Source of the DNA: Struthio camelus
Lineage: Eukaryota
NCBI RefSeq assembly: GCF_040807025.1
Contig: NC_090973.1
Location: 981,853 to 1,045,852, forward strand
DNA length: 64,000 nucleotides
Direction: 5' to 3'
Numbering within the stretch: the stretch's first letter is position 1; each line of letters starts with the position of its first letter. Positions 1 through 18,529 of this stretch are shown here, in pieces. The position numbers and the translations under genes are program-made. The notes beneath the pieces were generated by a model that saw nothing but the letters and a program-made list of their open reading frames with translations, did no database searches and was not told the DNA's origin.

Positions 1-1000
1 CTCTCCCCTTCCCCCCCAAACCCGGACGCCTGGGTCCCTCTCCCCTTCCCCCCCAACCCGGACGCCTGGGTCCCTCTCCCCTTCCCCCCCCAACCCGGAC
101 GCCTGGGTCCCTCTCCCCTTCCCCCCCCAACCCGGACGCCTGGGTCCCTCTCCCCTTCCCCCCCAACCCGGACGCCTGGGTCCCTCTCCCCTTCCCCCCC
201 CAACCCGGACGCCTGGGTCCCTCTCCCCGCCCCCCCCCAAACCCGGACGCCTGGGTCCCTCTCCCCGCCCCCCCCCAAACCCGGACGCCTGGGTCCCTCT
301 CCCCTTCCCCCCCAACCCGGACGCCTGGGTCCCTCTCCCCTTCCCCCCCCAACCCGGACGCCTGGGTCCCTCTCCCCTTCCCCCCCCAACCCGGACGCCT
401 GGGTCCCTCTCCCCTTCCCCCCCAACCCGGACGCCTGGGTCCCTCTCCCCGCCCCCCCCCAAACCCGGACGCCTGGGTCCCTCTCCCCGCCCCCCCCCAA
501 ACCCGGACGCCTGGGTCCCTCTCCCCGCCCCCCCCCAAACCCGGACGCCTGGGTCCCTCTCCCCGCCCCCCCCCAAACCCGGACGCCTGGGTCCCTCTCC
601 CCTTCCCCCCCCAAACCCGGACGCCTGGGTCCCTCTCCCCTTCCCCCCCCAAACCCGGACGCCTGGGTCCCTCTCCCCTTCCCCCCCCAAACCCGGACGC
701 CTGGGTCCCTCTCCCCTTCCCCCCCCAAACCCGGACGCCTGGGTCCCTCTCCCCCCCCCCAAACCCGGACGCCTGGGTCCCTCTCCCCTTCCCCCCCCAA
801 CCCGGACGCCTGGGTCCCTCTTCCCTTCCCCCCCCTAACCCGGACGCCTGGGTCCCTTTAACCCCTCCCCGGACCCCATGGGCAGGGGAGTGTGGGGCGT
901 TTCCCCGGACGCCTGGGCCCGTGGGGTGATGCGGGGTGTGATTCCCCGGACGCCTGGGCCCCGTGCCCGGACGCCGGGGTCCCCGCTGAGCCCCCCCCCC
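1..1000. repeat. ~40-bp tandem minisatellite (~21 clean copies to 845, degenerate to ~1000), unit ctctccccttcccccccaacccggacgcctgggtccct
   Basis: Direct tandem copies with C-run length variation. It abuts the ALDOA ATG-exon acceptor. Its core is the reverse complement of the GGGACCCAGGCGTCCGGG family seen at 10555-13130 and 17940-18330. Confidence 0.95.
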
Positions 1001-1023
1001 CTTTCCCCGCAGCCGCCGCCACC

Positions 1024-1135
1024 ATGCCGCACCAGTACCCGGCGCTGACGCCCGAGCAGAAGAAGGAGCTCGCCGACATCGCCCTGCGCATCGTCGCCCC
1101 CGGCAAGGGCATCCTCGCCGCCGATGAGTCCACCG
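1024..1135 (+). CDS. ALDOA: Fructose-bisphosphate aldolase A, coding exon 1 (start codon)
   Basis: Translates [37 protein letters not shown](G), near-identical to vertebrate ALDOA N-terminus. Kozak gccgccaccATGc. AG acceptor at 1011-1012 implies an upstream 5'UTR exon. GT donor at 1136. Confidence 0.92.
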
Positions 1136-1900
1136 GTGCGGCGCTGGGAGCACTGGGAGGGGAGCGGGGGGCACTGGGAGGGGATTGGGGGGCACCAGGT
1201 GGCGCTGGGAGGCACTGGGAGGGGACTGGGGGGTTCCCAGGTGGCACTGGGGGGCACTAGGGTGAGATCAGGGGCACTGGGGAGCACTGGGAGAAGATTG
1301 GGGGGCACTAGGTGGTGCTGGGAGGGGACTGGGAGGTGCTGGGAGGGGACTGGGGGCTCTCAGGTGGCACTGGGGGGCACTAGGGTGAGATCAGGGGCAC
1401 TAGGGAGCACTGGGAGAAGATTAGGGGGCACTAGGTGGTGCTGGGAGGGGACTGGGAGGCACTGGGAGGGGACTGGGGGCTCTCAGGTGGCACTGGGGGG
1501 CACTAGGGTGAGATCAGGGGCACTGGGGAGCACTGGGAAAAGAGCAGGGAGGCTGTGGGAGTGAATTGAGGGGCACTGGGTGACACTGGAAAGGGATTGG
1601 GGGGCACTAGGTGACACTGGGAGAGGAGTTGGGGCATTGGGAGGGGATCGGGAGGCAGTGGGTGACACTGGGGGAGGGACTGGGAGCACTGGGAGGAGAT
1701 CGGGGCACTGGGAGGGATCGGGAGGCAGTGGGTGATGCTGGGAGGGAATGGGGTGACATTAGGTGATACTGGGGAGGACTGGGAGGTCTTGGGAGGGGAT
1801 TGGGGGCACTGGGTGGGACTGGAAGTTGCTGGTGGAAGACTAGGAGGTTACTGGGGAGAACTACAAAAGCATTAGGAGGCACTGGGTGACGCTGGGAGGG
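1136..1900. repeat. ALDOA intron 1 G-rich minisatellite (ggcactgggagggga; ~122-bp higher-order unit x3 at 1244-1610)
   Basis: The first units, caccaggtggcgctgggagg at 1193-1213, copy the donor region caccggtgcggcgctgggag at 1130-1150. Confidence 0.9.
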
Positions 1901-2900
1901 CACTGGGTGACCCCAGGTGAGACCAGGAGGAGCCCAGGTGGCCCCAGGTGAGTCTGGGAGCACTGGGAGCCCCACAACCCCTGGCATCCCTGGTGCAACG
2001 GGAGCGTGGGTGCCACCAGGGTGCCCATGGGTGACCGCAGGTGACGCTGGGTGACCCCAGGGTGCCACTGGGGGTTACAGGGTGACCCCAGGTGAGACTG
2101 GGAGGCCCTGGGAGCACTGGGAGCCCCACAACCCCTGGCAACCCTGGTGCAACGGGAGCGTGGGTGCCACCAGGGTGCCCATGGGTGACTGCAGGTGACG
2201 CTGGGTGACCCCAGGGTGCCACTGGGGGTTACAGGGTGGCCCCAGGTGAAATCAGGAGGCCCTGGGAGCCCCACAACCCCTGGCAACCCTGGTGCAACAG
2301 GAGCGTGGGTGCCACCAGGGTGCCCATGGGTGACTACAGGCGACAGTGGGAGAGCCCAGGTGCCACTGGGGGTTTCTAGGTGGCCGCAGGTGGCCACCAG
2401 GTGGCCCCAGGTGAGACCGGGAGGCCCTGAGAGCGCTGGGAGCCCCACAACCCCTGGCAACCCTGGTGCAACGGGAGCGTGGGTGCCACCAGGGTGCCCA
2501 TGGGTGACTGCAGGTGACGCTGGGTGACCCCAGGGTGCCACTGGGGGTTACAGGGTGGCCCCAGGTGAAATCAGGAGGCCCTGGGAGCCCCACAACCCCT
2601 GGCAACCCTGGTGCAACAGGAGCGTGGGTGCCACCAGGGTGCCCATGGGTGACTGCAGGCGACAGTGGGAGAGCCCAGGTGCCACTGGGGGTTTCTAGGT
2701 GGCCGCAGGTGGCCACCAGATGGCCCCAGGTGAGACCGGGAGGCCCTGAGAGCGCTGGGAGCCCCACAACCCCTGGCAACCCTGGTGCAACGGGAGCGTG
2801 GGTGCCACCAGGGTGCCCATGGGTGACTGCAGGTGACGCTGGGTGACCCCAGGGTGCTACTGGGGGTTTCTAGGTGGCCCCAGGTGGCCACCAGGTGGCC
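1900..2900. repeat. 319-bp higher-order tandem repeat x3 (~160-bp subunit) in ALDOA intron 1
   Basis: The track shows identical 110-aa ORFs at 2195 and 2514, offset by 319 bp. A CTCF-like core CCACCAGGGTGCC recurs about 6 times. Confidence 0.9.
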
Positions 2901-3015
2901 CCAGGTGAGACCGGGAGGCCTTGGGAGCACCGGGAGCCCCGCAAAGCCCAGCCGCCTGGGGTGGCGTGGGTGCCGCGGGCGGCCCCGGCGGGTGACGCGG
3001 GCGGCCCCGGCGCAG

Positions 3016-3227
3016 GCAGCATCGCCAAGCGGCTGAGCTCGGTGGGGGCGGAGAACACGGAGGAGAACCGCCGCTGGTACCGCCAGCTGCTCTTCACGGC
3101 CGACCAGCGCGTCGACCCCTGCATCGGCGGCGTCATCCTCTTCCACGAGACCCTCTACCAGAAGGCCGACGACGGGCGCCCCTTCCCCGCCGTCATCCGC
3201 GCCAAGGGCGGCCTCGTCGGCATCAAG
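3016..3227 (+). CDS. ALDOA: ALDOA coding exon 2
   Basis: cag acceptor 3013-3015. Encodes [71 protein letters not shown]. Phase continues exon 1. GT donor 3228. Confidence 0.92.
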
Positions 3228-3239
3228 GTGGGGACGTCG

Positions 3240-4690
3240 GGGGGAGGCGGAGGCGTTGGGGAGATGGGGGGAAGTTGAGGGAACGTTGAGGGACGGTGGT
3301 GGACACAGAGATGTTGAGGGGATGCAGGGACGTTGGGGAGGCGTGGAGATGTTGAGGGAACGTTGGGGCACGGTGGTGGGCGCAGAGAGGTTGAGGGGAC
3401 GCAGGGGCGTTGGGGAGGCGTGGAGATGTTGAGGGAACGTTGGGGCACGGTGGTGGGCGCAGAGACGTTGAGGGGACGCAGGGACGTTGGGGAGATGTGG
3501 AGATGTTGAGGGAACGTTGGGGCACGGTGGTGGACGCAGAGAGGTTGAGGGGACGCAGGGACGTTGGGGAGATGTGGAGCCGTTGAGGGAACGTTGGGGG
3601 ACGGTGGTGGACGCAGAGATGTTGAGGGGACATTGGGGAGGCGTGGAGACGTTGAGGGAACGTTGGGGCACGGTGGTGGGCACAGAAGTTGAGGGGACGC
3701 ATGGACATTGGGGAGGTGTGGAGATGTTGAGGGAGCGTTGGGGGACGGTGGTGGACACACAGGTGTTGAGGGGACGCAGGGACGTTGGGGAGACACGGAG
3801 CCGTTGAGGGAACGTTGGGGGACGGTGGTGGATGCAGAGATGTTGAGGGGACGCAGGGATATTAGGGAGGCGTGGAGATGTTGAAGGAACGTTAGGGGAC
3901 AGTGGTGGACACGGAGAGGTTGAGGGGGACGTAAGGACGTTGGGGAGACGTGGAGCCGTTGGGGGACGGTGGTGGACGCAGAGATGTTGAGGGAACATTG
4001 GGGAGGCGTGGAGACGTTGAGGGAACGTTGGGGCATGGTGGTGGGCACAGAGAGGTTGAGGGGACGCAGGGACGTTGGGGAGGCGTGGAGATGTTGAGGG
4101 AGCGTTGGCGGACGTTGGTGGACACAGAGGTTGAGGGGACGCAGGGACGTTGGGGGGACGTGGAGCCGTTGAGGGAGCGTTGGGGGACGGTGATGTTGAT
4201 GGGATGCAAGGACGTTGGGGAGATGCGGAGACGTCGAGGGGACGTTGGGGGACATGGAGGTGACAGGATGTGCGGATGTTGGACACGGGGACACAAAGGG
4301 GACGCAAGGACGTCGGGGAGATGCAGAGCCGATTAGAGGACGTTGGGGGACACGGAGACGTGGATGCGACGTGGAGACGTTGGGGGGGGGACGTGGAGGG
4401 GACACTGGGGGACGTAGAGATGTGGAGGGGACGTGGGGATGTTGGGAGACAAGGAGACGTTGAGGGGACGTCGGGGGACGTGGAGACATGAAGGGGACGT
4501 AGGGACGATGGGGCACAAGGGGACATTGGGGACGTTGAGGGACACGGGGATGGTGGGGGAACGTAGTCTCAGAGTGGGGACATCGAGGGGACGTTGGGGG
4601 AGACAGGGACGTTGGGGGGATGTGGGGGACGTGGGGACGGGGTGGCCATGGAGCCAGGCCAGCTCCCAGTGACCGTGTCCCCGCGTCCCC
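3240..4690. repeat. ALDOA intron 2 ~80-bp G-rich minisatellite (gttgagggaacgttggggcacggtggtgggcgcagagaggttgaggggacgcagggacgttggggaggcgtggagat)
   Basis: About 18 tandem units. The subsequence ggtggtggacacagaggttgagggg resembles the exon-3 start ggtggacaagggggttgtg. Confidence 0.9.
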
Positions 4691-4701
4691 CCCCCCCCCA
4701 G

Positions 4702-4756
4702 GTGGACAAGGGGGTTGTGCCCCTGGCTGGCACCAATGGCGAGACCACCACCCAGG
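4702..4756 (+). CDS. ALDOA: ALDOA coding exon 3
   Basis: Polypyrimidine tract plus AG at 4700-4701. Encodes VDKGVVPLAGTNGETTTQ(G). gtgagt donor at 4757. Confidence 0.9.
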
Positions 4757-4759
4757 GTG

Positions 4760-6300
4760 AGTGACCGTCCCCGAGGGTGGCCTCATGTCCCTGCAAGGTC
4801 TCCAAGGGTGGCCCCGAGGGTGTCCCCATGTCCCCAAGGGTATTCCTAGGTCCTTAGGAAGTCCCCAAAGATGTCCTCAAGGGCTTCTCGGGTCCCCAAG
4901 GGCGTCCCCAGGTCCCCAAGGGCGTCCCTGAGGGCTTCCCTGTGTCCCCAAAGGGGTCCTCGTGTCCCCAAGAGGTTCTCTAGGGTATTTCGGTGTCCCC
5001 AGGTCCCCAAGGGTGTCCCCAAGGGGGTCCCTGTGTCCCCAAGCGGTGCCCAACATTGTTCCTGTGTCCTCATCGGCATCCCAGTGTCCCTGGCTGTGTC
5101 TGCGTGTCCCCAAGGCTGTCCCCGTGTCCCCGAAGCTGTCCCCAAGTCCTCTCTGCCTTCTCCACCTTCCCAAGGCTGTCCCCGTGTTCCCTATGTCATC
5201 TCTGTCTCTCCAACGCTGTCCCCAAGGCCATCTGTGTCCCCGACGCCATCCCCGTGGCTCTCCCCACGCGTTCCCTGCCACCATCCCCACCTCCTCGCCG
5301 GTGTCCCCAAGGCCGTCCCAGTGTCCCCAAGGCCATTGCCATCACCATCTCCATGCCTCTCCCTGCGCGGTCCCTGCTGGTGTCCCCGAGGCCATCCCCC
5401 AATGCCACCCCATGTCCCCGAGGCCATCTCCACGTCCCTACGGCCATCTCTGCGTCCCCAAACCCATGACTGACCCCATCTCTGTGGTTCAGTCCCCGCT
5501 GGTGTCCCCGAGGCCGTCCCCAAATGCCACCCCATGTCCCCTACGGCCATCTCTGCGTCCCCAAGCCCATGACCAACCGCATCTCCGTGGTTCAGTCCCC
5601 ACTGGTGTCCCCGAGGCCATCCCCCAATGCCACCCCATGTCCCCGAGGCCATCTCCACATCCCTACGGCCATCTCTGCGTCCCCAAGCCCATGACCAACC
5701 CCAACTCCGTGGTTCAGTCCCTGCTGGTGTCCCCGAGGCCATCCCCCAATGCCACCCCATGTCCCCGAGGCCATCTCCCACGTCCCTACGGCCATCTCTG
5801 CGTCCCCAAGCCCATGACCAACCGCATCTCCGTGGTTCAGTCCCCACTGGTGTCCCCGAGGCCGTCCCCAACTGCCACCCCATGTCCCCGAGGCCATCTC
5901 CACATCCCTACGGCCATCTCTGCGTCCCCAAGCCCATGACTGACCCCATCTCCGTGGTTCAGTCCCCACTGGTGTCCCCAAGGCCGTGCCCCAAGGCCAT
6001 CCCCATGTCCCCTACGGCCATCTCTGCGTCCCCAAACCCATGACTGACCCCATCTCCGTGGTTCAGTCCCTGCTGGTGTCCCCAAGGCCGTCCCCAACTG
6101 CCACCCCATGTCCCCGAGGCCATCTCCACATCCCTACGGCCATCTCTGCGTCCCCAAGCCCATAACCAACCCCATCTCCACGGTTCTCCATGGTCCCCGA
6201 GGCCATCTCCACGTCCCTACGGCCATCTCTGCGTCCCCAATGCTGCCCCCCGCCGTCGTCCTCGTGGCCGTGTCCCCCTCCCCCCCCCATCCCCACCCGC
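4760..6300. repeat. ALDOA intron 3 minisatellites: ~20-bp gtccccaagggtgtcccc (4780-5200) then ~120-bp unit containing ccatctctgcgtccccaagcccatgaccaacc (5200-6250)
   Basis: The periodicity shows in the repeated ORF peptides [23 protein letters not shown]. Confidence 0.9.
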
Positions 6301-6327
6301 GTCCCCACGGTGTCCCCGCGCGCCCAG

Positions 6328-6488
6328 GCCTGGACGGGCTGATGGAGCGCTGCGCCCAGTACAAGAAGGACGGGGCCGACTTCGCCAAGTGGCGCTGCGT
6401 GCTCAAGATCTCGGAGCACACGCCCTCGCGCCTCGCCATCATGGAGAACGCCAACGTCCTCGCCCGCTACGCCAGCATCTGCCAGCAG
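6328..6488 (+). CDS. ALDOA: ALDOA coding exon 4
   Basis: cag acceptor 6325-6327. Encodes [55 protein letters not shown] donor 6489. Confidence 0.92.
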
Positions 6489-6489
6489 G

Positions 6490-7335
6490 TCTGTCACCCC
6501 CGCCCCAGACGTGGCGTGGGGTGCCGGCGGGTCCCCGCCTCCTTTTGTCACCTGGGAGGGGTTGGAGAGCTCCCGGCGTCGGTGTGTCACCCCCTCCCGG
6601 GGGTGGCTGGGGACCTCCCGGCTGGGCTGTCGCGCCGGGACGCGATGCGGTGGCGTGTCCCTGCGTTCCCTCTCGTCACCCCGGGGTGGCCGGGGGTCTC
6701 CTGGCCGCGGCGCGGCGCCGGGACGCGACGTCGGTGGTGTCCTTGCGTCGCCTCTTGGCGCTCTGGGATGGCCGGAGATGTCCCGGCGGTGTCGTAGCGC
6801 CGGGATGTGGCCTTGGCGGCCTTCCCGCGTCACCTGCTGCCACCCCGAGGTGGCTGGGGATCTCCTGGCTGCGCTGTGGCACTGGGACGTGGCTTCGGCC
6901 ACGTCCCTGTGCCACCTGCTGCCACCTCGGGGTGGCTGGGGACATGCTGGTTCCACCGTGGTGCTGGGACGTGGTTTTGGTGGCGTTCCTGTGTCACCTC
7001 GGGATGGCTGGGGACTTCCTGGTTGTGTCGTGGTGCCAGGAGATGGCCTTGGCAGTGTCCCTGTGTCGCCTAGTGTCCCCTCCTGTCACCATGGGGTGGC
7101 TGGGGAGCTCCTGGCTGCGCTGTGACACCCAGACGTGGCTTTGGTAGCATCTCTGCGTCACTTGCTGTCACCCCCGGGGTGGCTGGGGGCCTCCTGGTTG
7201 TGCCGTGATGCCGGGACGCGGCCTTGGCGGGGCCCTTGTGTCACCTATTGTCACCCCGAGGGGGCTGGGCACCTCCTGGCTGTGGGTCCGTGTGCCCTTG
7301 TGTCGCCCCAGGGTGGCCGGCTGCCCCCAGGTGTC
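6490..7335. repeat. ALDOA intron 4 ~85-95-bp minisatellite (gtcacc..ggggtggctgggga.ctccyggctg.gctgt..cgccgggacg)
   Basis: About 9 units that start directly at the donor (gtctgtcaccc). Confidence 0.85.
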
Positions 7336-7371
7336 CTCGCACGTCCCCCAACTCGTGCCCTGTCCCCCCAG

Positions 7372-7455
7372 AACGGCATCGTCCCCATCGTGGAGCCCGA
7401 GATCCTCCCTGACGGCGACCACGACCTCAAGCGCTGCCAGTACGTCACGGAGAAG
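7372..7455 (+). CDS. ALDOA: ALDOA coding exon 5
   Basis: AG acceptor 7370-7371. Encodes [30 protein letters not shown] donor 7456. Confidence 0.92.
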
Positions 7456-7540
7456 GTGGGTGTCCCCGCGTTCCCCGCCGCGTCCCCAACCGCCTCCCTG
7501 TCCCCGCCGCGTCCGCAACGTGTCCCCGCCGCGTCCCCAG

Positions 7541-7715
7541 GTGCTGGCGGCCGTCTACAAGGCGCTGAGCGACCACCACGTCTACCTGGAGGGGACCCTG
7601 CTCAAGCCCAACATGGTGACGGCGGGTCACGCCTGTCCCAAGAAGTACAGCCCCGAGGAGATCGCCATGGCCACCGTCACTGCCCTGCGGCGCACCGTGC
7701 CACCCGCCGTCCCCG
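7541..7715 (+). CDS. ALDOA: ALDOA coding exon 6
   Basis: cag acceptor 7538-7540. Encodes [58 protein letters not shown](G). gtgag donor 7716. Confidence 0.92.
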
Positions 7716-7805
7716 GTGAGCCTCGGTGGCACCGGCGTGGCCCTGGGTTGGCCCCATCCCCTACGGCCGCGTCGCGCCGCGGCTGACGTCCCCGTCCCCG
7801 CGCAG

Positions 7806-8005
7806 GCATCACGTTCCTGTCCGGGGGCCAGAGCGAGGAGGAGGCGTCGCTGAACCTCAACGCCATCAACCGGTGCCCGCTGGCGCGGCCCTGGGCCCTG
7901 ACCTTCTCCTACGGGCGGGCGCTGCAGGCCTCGGCCCTGCGCGCCTGGGCCGGCAAGCGCGACAACACCAAGGCCGCCCAGGAGGAGTACGTCAAGCGCG
8001 CCCTG
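7806..8005 (+). CDS. ALDOA: ALDOA coding exon 7
   Basis: cag acceptor 7803-7805. Encodes (G)[66 protein letters not shown]. gtaggt donor 8006. Confidence 0.92.
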
Positions 8006-10330
8006 GTAGGTGGGGGGACGCGGCGGGGACGTGGGGATGGGGGTCGTGGTGGGACGTGGGTTCTGGTGGGACGTGGTGACATGGATTGTGGTGGGACGTG
8101 GGGATGGGTGTCGTGGTGGGAGGTGGAGGCAGGAGGACGGGGTGCTGGTGGGACGTGGTTGACATGAGGATAGCGGCTGTGGTGGGGCATGGGGACAGGG
8201 CTCCTGGTGGGATGTGGTGACATGGGGACAGGGGTGCTGGTGGGACAGGGTGATATGGGGACGGGGGTCATGGTGGGGCGTGGAGACATGAGGACAGGGG
8301 TGCTGGTGGGACATGAGGACATGGAGATGAAGGTCCTGGTGGGATGTGGTGACATGGGGATGGGGGTGCTGGTGGGACGTGGTGATGTGGGGACGGGGAT
8401 CCTGGTGGGACATGGGGACATGGAGGTCCTGGTGGGACGTGGGGACATGGGGACGGGGGTCGTGGTGGGACGTGGGGACATAGAGATGGAGGTCCTGGTG
8501 GAACGTGGTGACATGGGGATGGGGTGCTGGTGGGACGTGGGGACATGGAGATGGAGGTCCTGGTGGGATGTGGGGACATTGGGACGGGGGTCCTGGTGGG
8601 ATGTGGTGACGTGGGACGTGGTGACGTGGGGATGGAGGTCCTGGTGGGACGTGGGGACGGGGGTCCTGGTGGGACGTGGTGACGTGGGGACGGGGGTCGT
8701 GGTGGGACGTGGGGACGGAGGTCCTGGTGGGAGGTGGGGACGGGGGTGCTGGTGGGACGTGGGGACATTGGGACAGGGGTCGTGGTGGGGCATGAGGACA
8801 TGGGGACGGGGGTGCTGGTGGAACGTGAGGACGTGGGTGCTGGTGGGACATGGTGACATGGGGATGTGCGTCGTGGTGGGACGTGAGGACATGGGGATGT
8901 GGATTGTGGTGGGACGTGGGGACGGGGGTGCTGGTGGGACGTGGGGACGGGGGTGCTGGTGGGACGTGGGGACATGGAGATGGAGGTCCTGGTGGGACGT
9001 GGGGACGTGGGGATGGGGGTCGTGGTGGGACGTGGGGACATGGAGATGGAGGTCCTGGTGGGACGTGGTGACGTGGTGACGGGGGTCATGGTGGGACATG
9101 AGGACGTGGAGACGGAGGTCCTGGTGGGACGTGGGGACGGGGGTCGTGGTGGGACATGAGGACGTGGAGATGGAGGTCCTGGTGGGAGGTGGGGACGGGG
9201 GTCATGGTGGGACATGAGGACGTGGAGATGGAGGTCCTGGTGGGAGGTGGGGACGGGGGTCGTGGTGGGACATGAGGACGTGGAGATGGAGGTCCTGGTG
9301 GGAGGTGGGGACGTGGAGATGGAGGTCCTGGTGGGATGTGGGGACGTGGTGACGGGGGTCGTGGTGGGACATGAGGACGTGGAGATGAAGGTCCTGGTGG
9401 GACGTGGGGACGTGGAGATGGAGGTCCTGGTGGGACGTGGTGACGTGGTGATGGGGGTTGTGGTGGGACATGAGAACATGGAGATGGAGGTCCTGGTGGG
9501 AGGTGGTGACGGGGGTCGTGGTGGGACATGAGGACATGGAGATGGAGGTCCTGGTGGGACGTGGGGACGTGGAGATGGAGGTCCTGGTGGGACGTGGTGA
9601 CGGGGGTCATGGTGGGACATGAGGACGTGGAGACGGAGGTCCTGGTGGGACGGGGGGACGGGGGTCGTGGTGGGACATGAGGACGTGGAGATGGAGGTCC
9701 TGGTGGGACGTGGGGACGGGGGTCGTGGTGGGACACGAGGACGTGGAGATGGAGGTCCTGGTGGGACGTGGGGACGGGGGTTGTGGTGGGACGTGGGGGC
9801 ATGGAGATGAAGGTCCTGGTGGGACATAAGGACATGGGGACGTGGGTCGTGGTGGGACATGGGGACATGGGGACGTGGTGACGGGGGTCGTGGTGGGACA
9901 TGAGGACGTGGAGATGAAGGTCCTGGTGGGACATGAGAACATGGGGACGTGGGTCGTGGTGGGACATGGGGATGTGGGTCCTGGTGGGACATGGGGACAT
10001 GGGGACGGGGGTCGTGGTGGGACACGAGGACGTGGAGATGGAGGTCCTGGTGGGACGTGGTGATGTGGTGATGGGGGTTGTGGTGGGACATGAGAACGTG
10101 GAGATGGAGGTCCTGGTGGGACGTGGTGACGTGGTGATGGGGGTTGTGGTGGGACGTGAGGACGTGGAGATGGAGGTCCTGGTGGGACGTGGTGACGTGG
10201 TGATGGGGGTTGTGGTGGGACATGAGAACGTGGAGATGGAGGTCCTGGTGGGACGTGGTGACATGGGGACGGGGGTCCTGGTGGGACGGGGGGACGGGGG
10301 GAGCGCGGGCGTCCGCGGCGTGACGCGCGG
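8006..10330. repeat. ALDOA intron 7 G-rich minisatellite (ggaggtcctggtgggacgtggggacatggagat, 30/60-bp units with higher-order structure)
   Basis: The unit resembles the donor region gccctggtaggtggggggacg. It fills essentially the whole 2.3-kb intron. Confidence 0.9.
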
Positions 10331-10346
10331 CTCCCTGCGCCCGCAG

Positions 10347-10442
10347 GCCAACTCGCTGGCGTGCCAGGGCAAGTACGCGCCCAGCGGGCCGGCGGGGGCC
10401 GCCGCCAGCGAGTCCCTCTTCATCTCCAACCACGCCTACTGA
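10347..10442 (+). CDS. ALDOA: ALDOA terminal coding exon (stop TGA 10440-10442)
   Basis: cag acceptor 10344-10346. Encodes [31 protein letters not shown]. The 8 exons sum to 1095 nt, giving 364 aa as expected for ALDOA. Confidence 0.92.
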
Positions 10443-10505
10443 GGGGCCCCGGCGTCCGGGGCCGCCCCGCCCCCCCCCCGCCGCCGCCGCCTCTCCCGCT
10501 CCGGC

Positions 10506-10511
10506 AATAAA
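10506..10511 (+). promoter_or_regulatory. ALDOA: ALDOA polyadenylation signal AATAAA
   Basis: aataaa lies 64 nt after the stop codon in ccggcaataaacggcatctg. A GC-rich minisatellite starts right after it. Confidence 0.75.
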
Positions 10512-10554
10512 CGGCATCTGCCTCCGCACCCGCGTCTTGGGGGGCCCGGGCGGC

Positions 10555-13130
10555 CGGGGGAGGGGACCCAGGTGTCCGGGGAGGGGCCCAGGTGTCCGGG
10601 GAGGGGCCCAGGTGTCCGGGAGGGGCCCAGGTGTCCCGGAGGGAACCAAGCGTCTGTAATGGGCCCAGGTGTCCGGGGAGCGGCCCAGGCGTCCTGGAGG
10701 GACCCAGGTGTCCAGGAAGGGGCCCAGGCGTCCTGGAGGGACCCAGGTGTCCAGGGAGGGGGCCCAGGAGTCCAGGGAGGGGCCCAGGCATCCGGGGAGG
10801 GACCCAGGTGTCCAGGGAGGGGCCCTGGCGTCCGGGAGGGAACCAAGTGTCTGTAATGGGCCCAGCTGTCCGGGGAGGGACCCAGCTGTCCGGGGAGGGA
10901 CCCAGGCGTCTGAGAGGGGCCCAGGCATCCGGGAAGGGCCCAGGTGTCCTGGAAGGACCCAGGCGTCTGGGGAGGGGGCCCAGGAGTCCAGGGAAGGGCA
11001 GAGATGTCCGGAGAGGGGCCCAGGCGTCCCGGAGGGAACCAAGCGTCTGTAATGGGCCCAGGCATCTGGGAGGGACCCAGGTGTCCGGGGGAGGGGCCCA
11101 GGCGTCTGGGAGGGGCCCAGGCGTCCTGGAGGGACCCAGGTGTCCAGGAAGGGGCCCAGGCGTCCTGGAGGGACCCAGGCGTCCTGGAGGGACCCAGGAG
11201 TCCAGGGAGGGGCCCAGGCATCCGGGGAGGGACCCAGGTGTCCAGGGAGGGGCCCTGGCGTCCCGGAGGGAACCAAGTGTCTGTAATGGGCCCAGGTGTC
11301 CGGGGGGACCCAGGTGTCCGGGGAGGGGCCCAGGTGTCCGGGGAGGGGCCCAGGCGTCTGAGAGGGGCCCAGGCGTCCGGGAAGGGCCCAGGTGTCCGGG
11401 GGAGGGGGCCCAGGCGTCCGGGGACGGGGGCCCAAGCGTCCGGGAAGGACCAGGGCATCCGGGGAGGGCCCAGGTGTCCGGGAGGGCCCAGGCGTCCGGG
11501 GAGGAGGCCCAGGAGTCTGGGAAGGACCAGGGCATCCGGGAAGGGGCCCAGGTGTCCCGGAGGGAAGCAAGCGTCTGTAATGGGCCCAGGTGTCCGGGGA
11601 AGGGGCCCAGGTGTCCGGGGAGGGGCCCAGGTGTCCGGGAGGGGCCCAGGTGTCCGGGAGGGAACCAAGCGTCTGTAATGGGCCCAGGTGTCCGGGGAGC
11701 GGCCCAGGCGTCCTGGAGGGACCCAGGTGTCCAGGAAGGGGCCCAGGCGTCCTGGAGGGACCCAGGTGTCCAGGGAGGGGGCCCAGGAGTCCAGGGAGGG
11801 GCCCAGGCATCCGGGGAGGGACCCAGGCATCCGGGGAGGGGCCCTGGCGTCCCGGAGGGAACCAAGTGTCTGTAATGGGCCCAGGTGTCCGGGGAGGGAC
11901 CCAGCTGTCCGGGGAGGGGCCCAGGGGTCCGGGGAGGGGCCCAGGCATCCGGGGAGGGACCCAGGCGTCTGAGAGGGGCCCAGGCATCCGGGAAGGGCCC
12001 AGGTGTCCTGGAAGGACCCAGGCGTCTGGGGAGGGGGCCCAGGAGTCCGGGGAAGGGCAGAGATGTCCGGAGAGGGGCCCAGGCGTCCCAGAGGGAACCA
12101 AGCGTCTGTAATGGGCCCAGGTGTCCGGGGAGGGACCCAGGTGTCCGGGGAGGGGCCCAGGCGTCTGGGGAAGGGCCCAGGGAAGGGCCGAGGTGTCTGG
12201 GGAGGGACCTAGGTGTCTGGGAGGGGCCCTGGCATCCGGGAGGGACCCAGGCGGCTGGGAGGGCCCAGGCATCCGGGGAGGGGTCCAGGTGTCTGGGAGG
12301 GGCCCAGGCGTCCGGGAGGGGCCCAGGTGTCCGGGCAGGAAGGGGCCCAGGAGTCCAGGAGGGCCCAGGTGTTCGGGAGGGCCTAGGTGTCCAGGAAGGG
12401 GCCCAGGCGTCCGGGGAGGGACCGAGGTGTCTGGGGAGGGCCCAGGCATCCGGGGAGGGGCCCAGGCGTCCGGGAAGGACCCAGGTGTCCTGACAAGGAC
12501 CCAGGAGTCCGGGGAGGGGCCCAGGTGTCCGGGAGGGGCCCAGGCGTCCGGGGGGACCCAGGTGTCCGGGGAGGGACCCAGGCATCTGGGGAGGGACCCA
12601 GGAGTTCGGGAGGGGCCCAGGCATCCGGGAGGGGCCCAGGAGTCCAGGGAAGGACCCAGGCATCTGGGAGGGACCCAGGTGTCTGGGAGGGGCCCAGGTG
12701 TCCAGGAGGGGCCCAGGCGTCCGGGAGGGGCCCAGGCATCCAGGGAGGGGCCCAGGCATCCAGGGAGGGGCCCAGGAGTCCAGGGAAGGACCCAGGTGTC
12801 CGGGAGGGGCCCAGGCATCTGGGAGGGACCCAGGTGTCCGGGAGGGGCCCAGGCATCTGGGAGGGACCCAGGCGTCCGGGGAGGGGCCCAGGCGTCCGGG
12901 GAGGGGCCCAGGAGTCCGGGAGGGGCCCAGGAGTCCGGGGAAGGACCCAGGTGTCCGGGAAGGACCCAGGAGTCCGGGAGGGACCCAGGAGTCCGGGGAA
13001 GGACCCAGGCGTCCGGGGAGGGGCCCAGGCGTCCGGGGAGGGGCCCAGGCGTCCGGGGAGGGGCCCAGGTGTCCTGGAGGGCCCAGGCGCCCTGGGGAAG
13101 GGCCCAGGCGTCCGGGGAGCCCCCGGCGAG
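10555..13130. repeat. Intergenic ~21-bp minisatellite (gggacccaggcgtccggggag / ggggcccaggtgtccgggga), >110 copies, punctuated by gggaaccaagcgtctgtaatgggcccagg
   Basis: Direct tandem array with ~1-kb higher-order similarity (ORFs at 10592 and 11590). It is the same family, in inverted orientation, as the array at 1-1000. Confidence 0.95.
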
Positions 13131-13139
13131 CTCTCCCCG

Positions 13140-13260
13140 CCCACTGGCTCGCGCCCCGTGACGTCACGCCCTGCGGGGCGGCCCTCCCGCACGTCACTTC
13201 CGTCCCGCCGGTGGGCGGGGCCGGGGCCGGAAGTGACGCGCGGCGGCGGCGGCGGCCGGG
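13140..13260 (+). promoter_or_regulatory. PPP4C: CpG-island core-promoter module; candidate PPP4C TSS and non-coding exon 1
   Basis: It contains a perfect palindromic CRE TGACGTCA (13159-13166), a half-CRE ACGTCA, an inverted ETS pair CACTTCCG (13195-13202) and CCGGAAGTGACG (13227-13238), and an Sp1 box GGGCGGGGC (13213-13221). A possible donor GG|GTGCGA lies at 13260. It sits 2.6 kb after the ALDOA polyA signal and 2.9 kb before the PPP4C ATG, and a possible acceptor ggggggcag is at 16092-16094. Confidence 0.45.
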
Positions 13261-13269
13261 TGCGACCCG

Positions 13270-15650
13270 CGGCGGGTTCGGGGGTCGCCGGGGGGGTTCG
13301 GGGGGGGCCGGTTGGGGGCCGGTTGGTTTTTGGGGGCGGCTGGGGGGTTCTAGGGGCGGTGTGGGGGGGTTGGGGGGGTAGTTGGGGTGTTGCGGGGGCG
13401 GTTTGGGGGGGGTTGGGGGCAGGTTGGGGGGTTTTGGGGGTGTTTTGGGGGTGTTTGGGGGCAGTTTGGGGGTTTTGGGGGTGTTTGGGGGCAGTTGGGG
13501 GGTAGTTGGGGTGTTGCGGGGGCGGTTTGGGGGGTTTTGGGTACAGGTGGAGGGGGTTGGGGGCGGTTTGGGGGTGTTTGGGGGCAGGTTGGGGGGTTTC
13601 GGGGGTGTTTGGGGGCAGTTGGGGGTTTGGGGGCAGTTTGGGGGGTAGTTGGGGGTAGTTGGGGTGTTGGGGCAGTTTGAGGGGGTTGGGGGCGGTTTCG
13701 GGGTGTTTGGGGACAGGTTGGGTGTTTTGGGGCAGTTCGGGGGTAGTTGGGGTGTTGGGGCGGTTAGGGGGGTTGTTTGGGGGCAGGTTGGGGGGTTTCG
13801 GGGGTGTTTGGGGGCAGTTTGGGGGTAGTTGGGGTGTTGCGGGGGCGGTTTGGGGGGTTTTGGGTACAGGTGGAGGGGGTTGGGGGCGGTTTGGGGGTGT
13901 TTGGGGGCAGGTTGGGGGGTTTTGGGGGTGTTTGGGGGCAGTTGGGGGGTTTTGGGGGTGTTTGGGTGCAGTTGGGGGTTTGGGGGCAGTTTGGGGGGCA
14001 GCTGGGGGTAGTTGGGGTGTTGTGGGGGCAGTTTGAGGGGGTTGGGGGTGGTTTCGGGGTGTTTGGGGACAGGTTGGGTGTTTTGGGGCAGTTCGGGGGT
14101 AGTTGGGGTGTTGGGGCGGTTTGGGGGGTTGTTTGGGGGCAGGTTGGGGGGTTTTGGGGGTCTTTGGGGGTAGTTGGGGTATTGGGGCAGTTTGAGGGGT
14201 TTTGGGGACAGTTTGAGGGGGTTGGGGGTGTTTGGGGGCAGGTTGGGGGTTTTGGGGGGCAGTTGGGGGTAGTTGGGGTGTTGTGGGGGTAGTTTGAGGG
14301 GGTTGGGAGCGGTTTGGGGACAGTTTGGAGGTTTTGGGGGTCTTTGGGGGCAGTTTGGGGGTAGTTGGGGTGTTGTGGGGGCAGTTTGAGGGGGTTAGGA
14401 GCAGTTTGGGGGTGTTTGGGGACAGGTTGGGGGTTTGGGGGTCTTTTGGGACAGTTTGGGGGCAGTTTGGGTTTTGGGGACAGTTTGAGGGGTTTGGGGG
14501 CAGGTTTGGGGTAGTTGGGGTGTTGTGGGGGCAGTTTGGGGGGTTTGGGGACAGTTTGGGGGGTGTTTGGGGGTGGTTTTGGGGGTCTTTGGGGGCAGTT
14601 GGGGTTTTGGGGCAGTTTGGGGGAGTTTGGGACATTTTGGAGGGTCTTTGGGGGCAGTTTGGGGGGCAGTTTGGGGGTAGATGGGGTGTTGGGACGGTTT
14701 GGGGGGGTTGGGGGTGGTTTTGGGGGTGTTGGAGGGTCTTTGGGGGTAGTTTGGAGGGTTTGGGGGCAGTTTGGGGGTAGTTGGGGTGTTGTGGGGGCAG
14801 TTTGGGGGCTTTGGTGACAGTTTGAGGGGGTGGGAGCAGTTTGGGGGGTGTTTGGGGGCGGTTTTGGGGGTCTTTGGAGGCGGTTGAGGTTTTGGGGCAG
14901 TTTGGGGGTTTTGGGACAGTTTGGGGGGGTTTGGAGGCTGTTGGCGTAGGTGACAGTTTGGGGGCAGTTTGGGGACAGCTGGGGGGATATTTGGGGGCAG
15001 TTTGAGGGATTTTGGGGGCCACTTGCGGTTTGGGGGCAGTTTGGGGCAGTTTGAGGGGTTTCGGGGGGCGGTTTGAGGGGTTTGGGGAGACTTGAAGGGA
15101 TTCAGGGGCTGTTGGGGGAGTTTGGGGGAGCCGGAGGGATTTCGGGGGCAGTTGGGAGGGTTTTGGCTCCGTTGGCGAGGGGGGTGGGCAGGTTTGGGGG
15201 GGACGTTTTGGATTTGGGGGGCAATTGAGGGGATTTAGGGGACAGTTGGGGGGAGTTGGGGGGGCAATGGGGGCCCGTTGGGATGTTTTGCAGAGCGCTG
15301 GCGCGATTTGGGGTCAGGCTGGGGGTTTTTTTTGGGAGCGGTGGGGGGGGGTCACTTTGGGGGTCTTTAGGGGCACTTGGGGATTTTTGGGTCACTTTGG
15401 GGGTCGTCGGGGGGTCGGGGGGGCCGTTGGGGCCTTGGGGGGGGCATTTGGGGGTCGTCGGGGGGTTGGGGGGGCCGTTGGGGCCTTGGGGGGGCATTTG
15501 GGGGTCGTCGGGGGGTTGGGGGGGCCGTTGGGGCCTGGGGGGGCATTTGGGGGGTGCAAGCGGAGTTGGGGGGGTCTGGGGGCAATTGAAGGCAACGGAG
15601 GGGCAGTTCAGGGGGGGCTGGGGGGGGCTTTTGGGGGGGTGGAGGGCAAC
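13270..15650. repeat. G-rich minisatellite ggggg(c)ag(t)ttggggg(g)t(g)tttgggg (~20-bp units; G4T4-like)
   Basis: It fills the putative PPP4C intron 1 and has very high G-quadruplex potential on the + strand. It grades into the CAATTAG field at its 3' end. Confidence 0.95.
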
Positions 15651-15954
15651 TGAGGGGTCCGGGGAGCGATTAGGGGCTCGGGGGGGGTAATTAGGGGCTG
15701 TTGGGGGCACTTGGGGGTGTCGGGGGCAGTTAGGGGCTTGAGGGGGGGCTGTTAGGGGCATTTGGGGGGCAATTGGGGGTGCTGGGGGGCAGTTAGGGCA
15801 TTGGGGGGGCTATTGAGCAGGTAGGGAGTCGGGGGGCAATTAGGGGTGGGGGGCAACGAGGAGGGGGGCTGTGGTGTCCGGGGGGGGCAATTAGGGGTTG
15901 TGGGGGGGGTTAATTAGCCCTGATGGGGGGGGCAATTACCGTCCCCCCCCCAAG

Positions 15955-15975
15955 TGGCCATTTCACGTCACCTGG
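15955..15975 (+). promoter_or_regulatory. PPP4C: CRE-like TCACGTCA plus GGCCATTTC (YY1-like) motif ~130 bp upstream of the PPP4C ATG
   Basis: aagtggccatttcacgtcacctgggattgacgagcc. This is an alternative or proximal promoter element if the ATG exon is the first exon. Confidence 0.3.
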
Positions 15976-16099
15976 GATTGACGAGCCAGCACCGATGGGG
16001 GGGGGACGAGCCTAGCTGCCGTTGGGGAAAAGGGGGCAAAATTAAGTCATGGGGGTAATTAGGGGGGGCTAATTAACAGTTAATTAGGGGGGCAGGGCC

Positions 16100-16197
16100 A
16101 TGGGGGAGCCGAGCGACCTGGACCGGCAGATCGAGCAGCTGCGGCGCTGCGAGCTCATCAAGGAGAGCGAGGTGAAGGCCCTCTGCGCCAAGGCCAG
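16100..16197 (+). CDS. PPP4C: Serine/threonine-protein phosphatase 4 catalytic subunit, coding exon 1 (start codon)
   Basis: Encodes [32 protein letters not shown](R), which I recognise as the PPP4C N-terminus (human [33 protein letters not shown]). gtaccc donor at 16198. Confidence 0.92.
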
Positions 16198-16319
16198 GTA
16201 CCCCGGGGGGGGGGGCAATTAACCCCCGCACGGGGGTAATTAACCCCCACCGGGCTCGTTAGCCCCTCGGCGGGGCAATTAACCCGCCGGCGGGCCGCTG
16301 ACGAAGGGCCGTCCCGCAG

Positions 16320-16371
16320 GGAGATCCTGGTGGAGGAGAGCAACGTGCAGCGGGTGGACTCGCCCGTGACG
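16320..16371 (+). CDS. PPP4C: PPP4C coding exon 2
   Basis: cag acceptor 16317-16319. Encodes (R)EILVEESNVQRVDSPVT. gtgagc donor 16372. Confidence 0.9.
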
Positions 16372-16488
16372 GTGAGCGGGGCGATTAGCGGGGCTAATTA
16401 GGCCTCGGAGGGGGTAATTAGGGCTTGGAGGGGGTAATTAGGGGGCGGATTTGCCCCCCTCACCCCCCCGTTTTGCCCCCCCGCCCAG

Positions 16489-16539
16489 GTGTGCGGCGAC
16501 ATCCATGGGCAGTTTTACGACCTCAAGGAGCTCTTCCGG
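16489..16539 (+). CDS. PPP4C: PPP4C coding exon 3
   Basis: cag acceptor 16486-16488. Encodes [17 protein letters not shown]. gtgagt donor 16540. Confidence 0.9.
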
Positions 16540-16544
16540 GTGAG

Positions 16545-17832
16545 TCGCCCTGCTAATTGCCCCCCGCCCCGACTTAATTACCCCCCAGTAGACCCCCCCA
16601 CGCTTAGTTAGTCCTATCGGTGTTTAATTACCCTTTTTCAGTAGCCGATTATCTCTGATTGTTTGTTATCTGCTTAATTAGTGCCTGATGTGCGATTATC
16701 ACTCCGCTTTTTAACTCTTCTCGCTTAATTACCCCCTTAATTGACCTCCCTTTTTAATTGCACCCCCTTAATTGCCCCCAGTTCAGGCTTGACTGCCCCC
16801 CAACCGCTCATTGCCCCCCCTAATTGCTGCCCTGGTTGCTAATTATTCCCATGGTTGTTAATTGCCCCCCAGGCTATTTGTCCCTGTTGTTGTTTCTTAT
16901 CTTTAGTTGTTCCTGTTAATTATCTTTTCTGGGCTTAATTGCCCCCCCCCACTGCTAATTGCTCTCTGATTATGAGTTATTTATGTGGTCCTCAATTAGC
17001 CCTGGCTCCTAATTGCTCCTTTGCCTCGTTAGTTTGCTAGTTTGAGGCCTAATTGCCCCTAATGGCTGCCTAATTGCCCCTGCTAATTGCCCCACAAGCC
17101 CTAGTTGCCTCTGTAGTTGCCCCTGATTACGTGTTAATTGCTCTTCTCAGTCCCTAATTGCTCCCCTGGGTTTCCCCCACCCACTCCTAATTGCTCTAGA
17201 GCCCCTAATTGCCCCCCCCCATGCCCAACAGCCCCCCCCCAAATTGCCCCCCCAGCCTTGAATTGCCCCTTCAGCACCTTTTTGGCTCCCCTGGAGCTAA
17301 TTATCTCCCTAATTGCCCCATCACTAATTGCCCCTCCCAGCCGCAAATAGCTTCCCCGATTATCTCTCAGTTGCTAATTATCCTCTTAATTGCCTCCCCC
17401 AGCCCCTACTTGCCCCCGCTAGCCCTAATTGCCCCCCCCAACTCCTCCCAGGCCCTAATTACTCCCTTAATTGCCCCCCGGTCCCAAATATCCCCCCGAA
17501 TTGCCCCCGAGCTCCTAGCTGCTCCTTTCAGCCTTTTTTGCCCCCGTAATTGCCCCGTAGCCCTTAATTACTGTCTTAATTACCCCCCCCGGCCCCTAAC
17601 TGCTTCCCTTAGACCTATTTGCTGCTGTAATTGCCCCGTAGCTGCTAATCACCCCCTTAATTACCCCCCCCAGCCCCAGACAGCTTTCCCTAATTATTAA
17701 TTAGGTGTTTTGTTTGCTTGGGGTGGGGGGGGGGGCTTGGTAGCTTCCTTAATTGCTCTGTGGGCCGTAATTACCTGCCTAATTGCTCTGCTCAGTCCCT
17801 AATTGCTTTCCTCCCTAATTACCCCCCCCCCG
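16545..17832. repeat. C-strand (inverted) version of the same motif field: ~50 copies of (c)ctaattgcccc / cttaattacccc in PPP4C intron 3
   Basis: cccctaattgcccc is the reverse complement of ggggcaattagggg. Orientation flips at ~16455-16470, just upstream of exon 3. The region is relatively AT-rich. Confidence 0.85.
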
Positions 17833-17835
17833 CAG

Positions 17836-17937
17836 GTGGGGGGTGACGTCCCCGAGACCAACTACCTGTTCATGGGCGACTTCGTGGACCGGGGCTTCTA
17901 CAGCGTCGAGACCTTCCTGCTGCTCCTCGCCCTCAAG
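17836..17937 (+). CDS. PPP4C: PPP4C coding exon 4
   Basis: cag acceptor 17833-17835. Encodes [34 protein letters not shown] (metallophosphatase GDxVDRG motif). GT donor 17938. Confidence 0.92.
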
Positions 17938-17939
17938 GT

Positions 17940-18330
17940 GGGGCCCAGGCGTCCGGGAGGGATGAGGAGGGACCCAGGTGTCCGGGCCGGGGGGGGGGAC
18001 AGGAGGGTAGGAAAGAGGGGCCCAGGTGTCCGGGAGGAGCCAGGCCCCTTTGTGTGCAAACCAAATGTCTGGTGGGGGGGGGGGAGGGTGTCTGGAGCAA
18101 GAAGGGGCCCAGGCGTCCGGGGAGGGACCCAGGCGTCCTGGTGACATTCAAGCGTCTGGAGTGAGAAGGGATCCAGGCATCCGGGGAGGGGTCCCAGGTG
18201 TCCGGGGTTGGGGGACGGGGACCCAAGTGTCCAGGAGGCTTCCAGGTGCCTGGGACCAGAGGGGACCCAGGCGTCCGGGGCGGGGGGGAAGGACCCAGGC
18301 GTCCGGGAGGACCCAGACGTGCGGGCGCCG
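17940..18330. repeat. Block of the gggacccaggcgtccggg(ga) minisatellite family inside PPP4C intron 4
   Basis: It has the same unit as 10555-13130 and about 12 copies. Confidence 0.85.
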
Positions 18331-18333
18331 CAG

Positions 18334-18507
18334 GTGCGCTACCCCGACCGCATCACGCTGATCCGGGGCAACCACGAGAGCCGGCAGATCACGCAGGTCT
18401 ACGGCTTCTACGACGAGTGCCTGCGCAAGTACGGCTCCGTCACCGTCTGGCGCTACTGCACCGAGATCTTCGACTACCTCAGCCTCTCCGCCATCATCGA
18501 CGGCAAG
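18334..18507 (+). CDS. PPP4C: PPP4C coding exon 5
   Basis: cag acceptor 18331-18333. Encodes [58 protein letters not shown] (GNHE motif). gtgagc donor 18508. Confidence 0.92.
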
Positions 18508-18529
18508 GTGAGCGCCCCCCCGGGGCCTG

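Follow-up and report, generated by a model that had tools for sequence, protein, structure and literature searches.

A minisatellite core at three sites and in two orientations around ostrich ALDOA, with counterparts at the same sites in other palaeognaths

Introduction

Genes of the avian dot chromosomes show "sequence stuttering", and the report describing it names ALDOA, on chicken chromosome 38, among them; it argues that the arrays have a local origin and recent, intraspecific dynamics in chicken, where "exon stuttering" also occurs (PMC12954441). According to a second study, dot-chromosome introns are more than 70% tandem repeats, mostly minisatellites in multiples of 10-11 bp, G-quadruplexes (G4s) are enriched on the coding strand of these introns, and the repeat content of zebra finch dot chromosomes is driven mainly by one minisatellite, located in euchromatic introns and intergenic DNA (bioRxiv 10.1101/2025.10.17.683159). 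The "inverted repeats" of that study, as far as their context shows, are short non-B motifs with arms of at most 30 bp and spacers of at most 10 bp. In both papers, the terms searched for gave no match on array orientation ("inverted") or on the sharing of arrays across species. Here we describe 64,000 nucleotides of the ostrich, Struthio camelus (NC_090973.1, positions 981,853 to 1,045,852; hereafter the window), which contain ALDOA and PPP4C and in which a single minisatellite core occurs at three separate sites in two orientations.

Two other kinds of repeat serve as a comparison. Minisatellites of the Jeffreys type, known from mammals, are hypervariable arrays with different units that share a short G-rich core, the 33.6/33.15 core. 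The int22h repeats at F8 are recombinogenic inverted repeats that mediate inversions; homologous recombination between repeats requires hundreds of bp of near-identity.

Results

The core of the family is the 18-mer GGGRCCCAGGCGTCCGGG/GGGACCCAGGCGTCCGGG, and its copies were scored at no more than two mismatches, with the expectation taken from dinucleotide-preserving shuffles. The window contains 109 matches, against 0.07 expected, and none of 100 shuffles had as many. Strand separation is strict: the 26 copies at 21-983 are without exception on the minus strand, and every one of the 83 at 10443-13116 and 17940-18307 is on the plus strand. These copies form array 1, array 2 and block 3 (Table 1); in the other ~45 kb of the window there is no further cluster, only isolated two-mismatch matches. 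A 14-mer dot-matrix of the 64 kb showed, at that stringency, that this family accounts for the sole long-range inverted relation, and that the sole direct relation between separate arrays is the one joining array 2 with the block at 18 kb. A first-pass annotation of this DNA had proposed that ALDOA is surrounded by one motif family in opposite orientations and that a third block, in direct orientation, lies in PPP4C intron 4, and both proposals were borne out.

The arrays differ in construction. In array 1, each unit consists of a C-rich spacer, CTCTCCCCTTCCCCCCCCAAA, followed by the core, CCCGGACGCCTGGGTCC; cccggacgcctgggtccc is visible in the unit on direct reading of 1-1500, and 23 of the minus-strand matches to the 18-mer are exact. 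The window starts within this array, which is thus truncated at its 5′ edge. Array 2 has a higher-order period of 39 bp according to Tandem Repeats Finder (TRF), and 74 plus-strand core matches were scored at 10563-13116. In block 3, nine copies were found at up to two mismatches (17940-18307) and 11 at up to four; their spacing is irregular, and TRF reports a short 18-bp repeat at 18290-18325. The coordinates and units given in the first-pass annotation hold with some refinements, one being that block 3 is in the ostrich a degenerate cluster and not a regular array. Its description of the two array units as reverse complements of each other holds for a shared core of 18-25 bp but not for the units as wholes, which differ in length (38 vs 19-20 bp). 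A reading of the array 1 spacer as a diverged second core copy (38 = 2 x 19) was also considered and rejected, as only ~8 of 20 positions match by eye.

Genes were called by tblastn with human ALDOA and PPP4C as queries, followed by a search for GT-AG junctions. The tail of array 1 is closed by a polypyrimidine tract and an AG acceptor (ccccgcag followed by CCGCCGCCACCATG), with the AG at 1011-1012, 11 bases 5′ of the ATG; because of this tract and acceptor, array 1 probably occupies the 3′ part of an intron located before the first ALDOA coding exon. A similar tract and cag acceptor are located just 5′ of the ATG in emu, rhea and swan, and in emu the acceptor adjoins the last core copy. Strictly, the arrays bracket the coding part of ALDOA but not, as had been stated, the gene, as array 1 would lie inside the transcription unit. 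At the other end, the stop codon TGA (10440-10442) is directly followed by a single core variant, and the same 18-mer occupies this position in emu, rhea (two copies) and kiwi but not in swan, parrot or wrentit. The ALDOA poly(A) signal is an AATAAA at 10507-10512, and array 2 extends from ~30 bp past it up to the promoter region of PPP4C. The unique sequence that bounds array 2 contains TGACGTCA and CCGGAAGTG, which are cAMP response element (CRE) and ETS-like motifs, and it aligns to emu and rhea; from its position and motifs, it is presumably the PPP4C promoter and first non-coding exon.

Orthologous loci were retrieved through an ALDOA protein search from a parrot, a wrentit, the black swan, emu, rhea and kiwi. 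In emu and rhea, the core occurs at the three ostrich sites in the same orientations, and the position of each cluster relative to the exons was verified: minus before the first coding exon, plus from the first base after the stop codon, and plus between PPP4C exons 4 and 5. The kiwi sequence starts inside ALDOA and does not cover the upstream site; both sites that it covers carry the core. The flanks of the emu, rhea and kiwi loci hold no further clusters, only isolated two-mismatch matches. In the swan, parrot and wrentit loci there is no core copy even at three mismatches, bar one stray match, and other minisatellites occupy these sites. The whole ostrich locus, with its arrays, can be aligned in collinear order with emu and for the most part with rhea, at 64-75% identity, and very little of its non-exonic sequence aligns to the neognaths. 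Because the same motif, sites and orientations are found in emu and rhea, and two of the sites in kiwi, the three sites and their mirrored layout are older than the split of the ostrich from the other palaeognaths. The ostrich is the sister lineage to the other palaeognaths, and this split took place tens of millions of years ago.

Array units are site-specific, being common to species rather than to arrays (Table 1). The core consensus is at least 90% in 10-11 arrays of the four species, where flanks and periods differ, and the core was kept while spacers and periods changed, the periods now being 19-21 bp in the downstream array, 34-53 bp in the upstream one and 25-52 bp in the intron. The length of PPP4C intron 4 ranges from 109 bp (rhea) through 396 bp (ostrich) and 800 bp (emu) to 938 bp (kiwi), with 2 to >30 core copies, and its array is regular in emu and kiwi only. 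These comparisons show that the ancestor common to ostrich, emu, rhea and kiwi already had the core at three sites, and that each array has since expanded, contracted and been re-homogenised separately. The explanation that we favour, with good though not full confidence, is that the three are orthologous arrays of one old local minisatellite family, produced by stuttering and kept by array turnover. A local origin would fit the three clusters within 64 kb, the lack of any in the flanks of the related loci, and the core copy in the 3′ untranslated region (UTR) beside array 2. The arrays may have grown through replication slippage, unequal exchange or gene conversion, and an ancient ectopic event within the locus, for example template switching or ectopic conversion, may have given rise to the two extra sites, one of them inverted. 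Spread by ectopic conversion, as put forward in the first-pass annotation, is thus plausible as ancient seeding only; ongoing homogenisation between arrays is disfavoured, because the spacer and period of each array are common to the species and not to the arrays. A variant of the core with A at position 4 was considered as a sign of ongoing concerted evolution among the three arrays and discarded, since both A and G occur in the arrays of other species; ancestral polymorphism would explain this pattern.

The two arrays that flank the ALDOA coding region differ in CpG decay. Variation in array 2 falls mostly at two core CpGs (position 11, C57/T48/A15; position 12, G101/A20; position 15, C102/T19; position 16, G85/A18/T12), and most non-CpG positions of the core are at least 94% invariant. 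Many CpGs of the downstream array have turned to TpG/CpA. Across species, the first core CpG is intact in 94-100% of the upstream copies vs 17-76% of the downstream copies, and in ostrich array 1 the core CpGs are 100% intact; the CpG observed/expected ratios are 0.61 for array 1 and 0.37 for array 2. This pattern would fit an unmethylated array 1 in a CpG-island or promoter-proximal context and an array 2 that is methylated in the germline and drifts neutrally. The arrays also differ in the strand of their G4 motifs: array 1 has 23 canonical motifs on the minus, that is the template, strand and none on the plus strand, and array 2 has 39 long-loop motifs and 70 GGGAGGG sites on the sense (plus) strand and no G4 on the minus strand. 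The whole window has 234 motifs on the plus and 84 on the minus strand.

A test of the three top k-mers showed that the core-family 14-mer, CCCAGGCGTCCGGG, is the most abundant conserved array k-mer of the locus. The idea that the core is uniquely conserved or constrained was nevertheless dropped, since a test of the best-shared k-mers found 14-mers that are also kept in emu, rhea or kiwi in the arrays of ALDOA introns 1, 2 and 7 and PPP4C introns 1 and 5. Because these other introns retain shared 14-mers too, the conservation of array motifs is a property of the palaeognath locus and not of the core alone, and is not taken as evidence for function. No convincing match was obtained to AP-2, ZIC, HINFP, EGR or hypoxia response element sites, and a literature search with the core 13-mer returned a single match, an irrelevant paper on the human eNOS promoter.

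A second, unrelated mirrored pair of minisatellites is located around PPP4C exons 1-3, at 15683-16431 (plus) and 16554-17816 (minus). Plus-strand copies of GGGG(N)YAATTA occur in the PPP4C 5′ intron and in small introns 1-2, and intron 3 contains their reverse complement, TAATTR(N)CCCC, so that the flip occurs around exon 3 (16489-16539). TRF finds the same family with the same polarity in emu (L004 25478-25822 plus, 26405-27068 minus) and in swan (L003 13015-13756 plus, 14402-14932 minus); in rhea, only C-rich copies of the intron 3 type were seen (L005 22893-23023). Because this unrelated pair, GGGGNYAATTA, also flanks these exons in emu and swan, mirror-image arrays around exons may be a regular product of stuttering, for example through replication strand-switching. 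This forms part of an alternative, which we consider rather improbable, in which the ALDOA core would propagate itself or be under selection as a cis-element (for instance as a hotspot of conversion or recombination, or as a site for protein binding or G4 formation) and would have been kept at its three sites since the palaeognath ancestor. If true, it would provide a handle on the mechanism of repeat expansion on dot chromosomes.

The main rival explanation, in our view an unlikely one, is that the arrays are functional cis-elements whose core is a binding site or a structure-forming element. Array 2 might then pause or terminate RNA polymerase II, or act as an insulator, between the closely spaced tandem genes ALDOA and PPP4C; the upstream inverted array might act near the 5′ end; and the two complementary arrays might pair, in nascent RNA or in chromatin, and so connect the ends of the gene. 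G-rich pause sites of the MAZ type are established between close tandem genes, and array 2 resembles such MAZ, R-loop or G4 terminators in its location, between the ALDOA poly(A) signal and the PPP4C promoter, and in the G-richness of its sense strand; its GGGAGGG or GGGGAGGGG junctions are prone to form G4s on the non-template strand. In parrot and swan, too, the ALDOA stop codon is followed by G-rich arrays, with units of ~20 bp, and the retention of the core while spacers change, together with its rank among conserved 14-mers, would be expected of such an element. Array 2 differs from the known terminators in its CpG decay, which is typical of neutral methylated DNA. The position of array 2 is weak evidence because G-rich arrays, with 234 plus-strand G4 motifs, occur throughout the window. 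The wide variation in copy number in PPP4C intron 4, the neognaths that have none of the motif, the shared 14-mers of other arrays and the lack of a convincing match of the core to the motifs compared all speak against this alternative.

The first-pass annotation had further described arrays 1 and 2 as kilobase-scale inverted repeats able to mediate inversion or hairpin formation, and neither statement was supported. At first sight, two related arrays of ~1 kb and 2.6 kb in opposite orientation, 9.6 kb apart, agree with it, and a comparison of 1-1010 with 10443-13130 gave 2581 inverted and 15 same-strand high-scoring segment pairs (HSPs). These matches are short, however: exact inverted identity between the arrays extends over 20 bp at most, and the best inverted HSP covers 41 bp, at 92%. 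The sequence common to both arrays is the core only, extended to ~25 bases as GGGGAG(A)GGGACCCAGGCGTCCGGG; the 20-base C-rich spacer of the array 1 unit is missing from array 2, and the periods of 38 and 19-20 bp are out of register. An inverted alignment of 1 kb is obtained only with very permissive gapped scoring, at 64% identity and with 35-45 gap openings. Long continuous arms of high identity (hundreds of bp at ~90-95% or more) are not found, and folds of the core and of two-unit stretches as single-stranded DNA were not more stable than shuffles (z from -0.7 to +0.9), for which hairpin formation was rejected. Because of the short matches, the heavily gapped alignment and the folds that behave like shuffles, the label of kilobase-scale inverted repeats is misleading, and arrays 1 and 2 are out-of-register arrays of short complementary patches.

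Comparison among birds leads to the same view. Each of the seven loci (ostrich, emu, rhea, kiwi, swan, parrot and wrentit) has ALDOA and PPP4C in the same order and on one strand, with no inversion of the intervening segment. Because the mirrored layout, with the same orientation of ALDOA relative to PPP4C, is found in emu and rhea, and the downstream sites in kiwi, no inversion has been fixed since the palaeognath ancestor. An inversion between the arrays would, besides, sever the ALDOA coding exons from their 5′ end. As with int22h-type repeats, related sequence in opposite orientation lies on both sides of a gene segment; in contrast to the kilobases at >95% identity of that type, here there are patches of 18-41 bp with an overall gapped identity of ~64%, and no inversion among the seven species. 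A homology of 20-41 bp would be too short, and a distance of 9.6 kb too great, to drive inversion or foldback, and an inversion, large hairpin or cruciform mediated by these arrays is accordingly very improbable.

Equally improbable is a mobile or dispersed-satellite origin, in which three arrivals of a transposable element or of a genome-wide satellite would have brought the core into the locus. The presence of one core in two orientations at three sites within 18 kb could suggest it, as could the reported dominance of one minisatellite on the zebra finch dot chromosomes (bioRxiv 10.1101/2025.10.17.683159). Nevertheless, the clusters have no counterpart in the ~45 kb of the window outside them or in the flanks of emu, rhea and kiwi, a scan of 1-20000 gave no Rfam match, and the array sequence read contains no terminal repeats, target-site duplications, coding capacity or RNA-gene parts. 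The sites are also orthologous in four genera, so that insertions, if any, would all go back to one set of old events. The mobile origin offered by the first-pass annotation thus found no support in the window, in these flanks or in Rfam. That the arrays were mis-joined or mis-oriented during assembly is barely credible: GC-rich, repeat-rich regions are hard to sequence and assemble and array 1 is unusually homogeneous, but the same arrays, positions and orientations occur in the independent assemblies of emu, rhea and kiwi, and the surrounding ALDOA and PPP4C reading frames are intact, with GT-AG introns.

Other arrays of the locus were noted alongside this family. The GC skew of the window flips sign in blocks that track the arrays (-0.48 over 0-1 kb, above zero from 1 to 5 kb, below zero from 5 to 8 kb and +0.65 over 8-10 kb, with values of up to +0.82 in the interval 14-15 kb and +0.76 in the interval 42-44 kb). 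Intron 5 of PPP4C (18531-20739) holds a 134-bp higher-order array on GCACACGCTAA, with 16.5 copies and 90% matches, whose 14-mers are also found in emu, rhea and kiwi. The PPP4C 5′ intron contains G-rich arrays with units of ~10-11 bp in all the birds examined, and period and strand bias are kept where the sequence differs (Table 1). Stuttering also affects the ALDOA 3′ UTR itself (window 10443-10540; swan L003 8491-8560; emu L004 22551-22660): emu and kiwi have short repeats of the GACACG(T/C) type, and swan has three tandem GTGACGTCACCGGGA units with a CRE palindrome in each.

In coding DNA, the 3′ part of ALDOA exon 1 (~27 codons) is repeated in emu as seven extra copies downstream (L004 10196-11364), and in wrentit the same part lies within a 361-bp tandem unit (L002 10045-11124); no extra copies of this exon were seen in ostrich. 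Upstream of array 1, an array of the CAGATTTGGGG...AAAAAGG type is common to emu, rhea and parrot and, more loosely, wrentit; its ostrich counterpart would lie outside the window. Because of this distribution, some dot-chromosome array motifs seem to predate the split between palaeognaths and neognaths.

Table 1. Coordinates and units of the arrays and genes of the ALDOA-PPP4C locus in the ostrich window and of their counterparts in other birds
Locus	Feature	Coordinates	Strand	Details
Ostrich	Array 1	1-857	Core on minus	38-bp unit CTCTCCCCTTCCCCCCCCAAACCCGGACGCCTGGGTCC, 23.1 copies, 96% matches (TRF)
Ostrich	Array 1, degenerate tail	858-1012	Minus	Core copies at 904-921, 945-962, 966-983
Ostrich	ALDOA coding region	1024-10442	Plus	364 aa, 8 exons; protein identical to Struthio camelus XP_068779399.1
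Ostrich	ALDOA exons	1024-1135, 3016-3227, 4702-4756, 6328-6488, 7372-7455, 7541-7715, 7806-8005, 10347-10442	Plus
Ostrich	Single core variant	10443-10460	Plus	GGGGCCCCGGCGTCCGGG; opens the ALDOA 3′ UTR
Ostrich	Array 2	10541-13119	Core on plus	19-20-bp unit GGGGCCCAGGCGTCCGGGGA, ~132 copies, 76% matches (TRF)
Ostrich	CpG-rich, unique GC-rich stretch bounding array 2	13120-13328	Plus	CpG observed/expected 1.03
Ostrich	PPP4C, 8 coding exons	16100-26242	Plus	Intact; protein identical to Struthio camelus entry
Ostrich	Block 3 (PPP4C intron 4)	17938-18333	Plus	396 bp; nearly all degenerate core copies
Emu (L004)	Core clusters	9256-9970, 22551-23918, 27360-28116	Minus, plus, plus
Rhea (L005)	Core clusters	5955-6779, 17532-18704, 23345-23370	Minus, plus, plus
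Kiwi (L006)	Core clusters	7770-8851, 11853-12741	Plus, plus
Four palaeognaths	Upstream array unit, poly-C spacers in all			Ostrich 38 bp; emu 34/43/53 bp; rhea 49 bp; kiwi not covered
Four palaeognaths	Downstream array unit			Ostrich 19-20 bp; emu 19-20 bp; rhea 21 bp with 62/83-bp higher order; kiwi 19/39 bp
Four palaeognaths	PPP4C intron 4 array			Ostrich degenerate; emu 33/44 bp; rhea 2 copies; kiwi 31/52 bp
Ostrich	PPP4C 5′ intron array	13329-15166		Unit TTTGGGGGCAG
Swan (L003)	PPP4C 5′ intron array	11214-12735		Unit GGGGCGGCTGT
Parrot (L001)	PPP4C 5′ intron array	15195-15568		Unit CTATGGGGGT
Wrentit (L002)	PPP4C 5′ intron array	24775-28275		Unit TCATTTTGGG
Emu (L004)	CAGATTTGGGG...AAAAAGG-type array	8500-9210
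Rhea (L005)	CAGATTTGGGG...AAAAAGG-type array	5000-5873
Parrot (L001)	CAGATTTGGGG...AAAAAGG-type array	1987-3992
Wrentit (L002)	CAGATTTGGGG...AAAAAGG-type array	2603-4370

Discussion

The ostrich arrays are an instance of the known class of stuttering sequences. The locus probably lies on a GC-rich microchromosome of the dot type, as suggested by the synteny block, by the small size of the sequences that carry it (ostrich 4.79 Mb, emu 3.31 Mb, kiwi 0.64 Mb) and by the GC content, 0.56-0.78 across the window. TRF arrays cover 72% of the window, 50-95% of most ALDOA and PPP4C introns and 90% of the intergenic DNA at 10443-16099, and the other six bird loci are likewise packed with arrays at the same positions. 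The likeness to avian stuttering includes the GC-rich, gene-dense microchromosomal setting with the ALDOA-PPP4C synteny block, the filling of introns and spacers by imperfect arrays with units of tens of bases, a possibly local origin and a tendency to form G4s. Periods near multiples of 10-11 bp (19-21, 31-34, 43-44 and 52-53) are a further likeness, as are the exon-derived repeats at this locus in emu and wrentit, which are the same thing as the exon stuttering described in chicken.

Two features set the locus apart. In chicken, the stuttering report stresses recent, intraspecific variability (PMC12954441), whereas here motif, site and orientation of three arrays are common to four palaeognath genera; and a single core occupies three separate sites in two orientations. 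As in minisatellites of the Jeffreys type, a short G-rich core (10-18 bases) recurs in arrays that otherwise differ in spacer and in length of unit; this core is, however, unrelated to the 33.6/33.15 core, and the family is, as far as these loci show, restricted to one stretch of 18 kb where the mammalian ones are dispersed. To our knowledge birds lack PRDM9, and the proposed mammalian link between minisatellites and recombination hotspots is for this reason not directly transferable.

Several points weigh against reading the arrays as one old local family kept by turnover. The family is called local on the basis of ~64 kb of ostrich and ~30 kb each from emu, rhea and kiwi, and the upstream end of ostrich array 1 lies outside the window. 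The mechanisms of array growth and of the original seeding are deduced and not observed, and the methylation state is read from CpG decay only. The rank of the core as the top conserved k-mer leaves some room for selection on it.

As a substrate for inversion, the mirrored arrays have no importance, given that their homology is too short and that the layout has been stable through the whole history of the palaeognaths, and any role of the mirrored orientation is hypothetical. Their value is that of a dated example of dot-chromosome stuttering, to which the locus adds one core at three sites in two orientations, an age at least that of crown Palaeognathae, and a difference in CpG state between the upstream and downstream arrays. 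As ostrich, emu, rhea and kiwi show, an array can keep its site, orientation and core motif while its period, spacer and copy number turn over, and the neognaths have different motifs at the same positions. Neighbouring arrays of the same family can, moreover, differ sharply in CpG decay, with the promoter-proximal one intact and the intergenic one decayed. Together with the second mirrored pair, these arrays are test cases for how such arrays arise, and they temper the view of stuttering as only evolutionarily recent.

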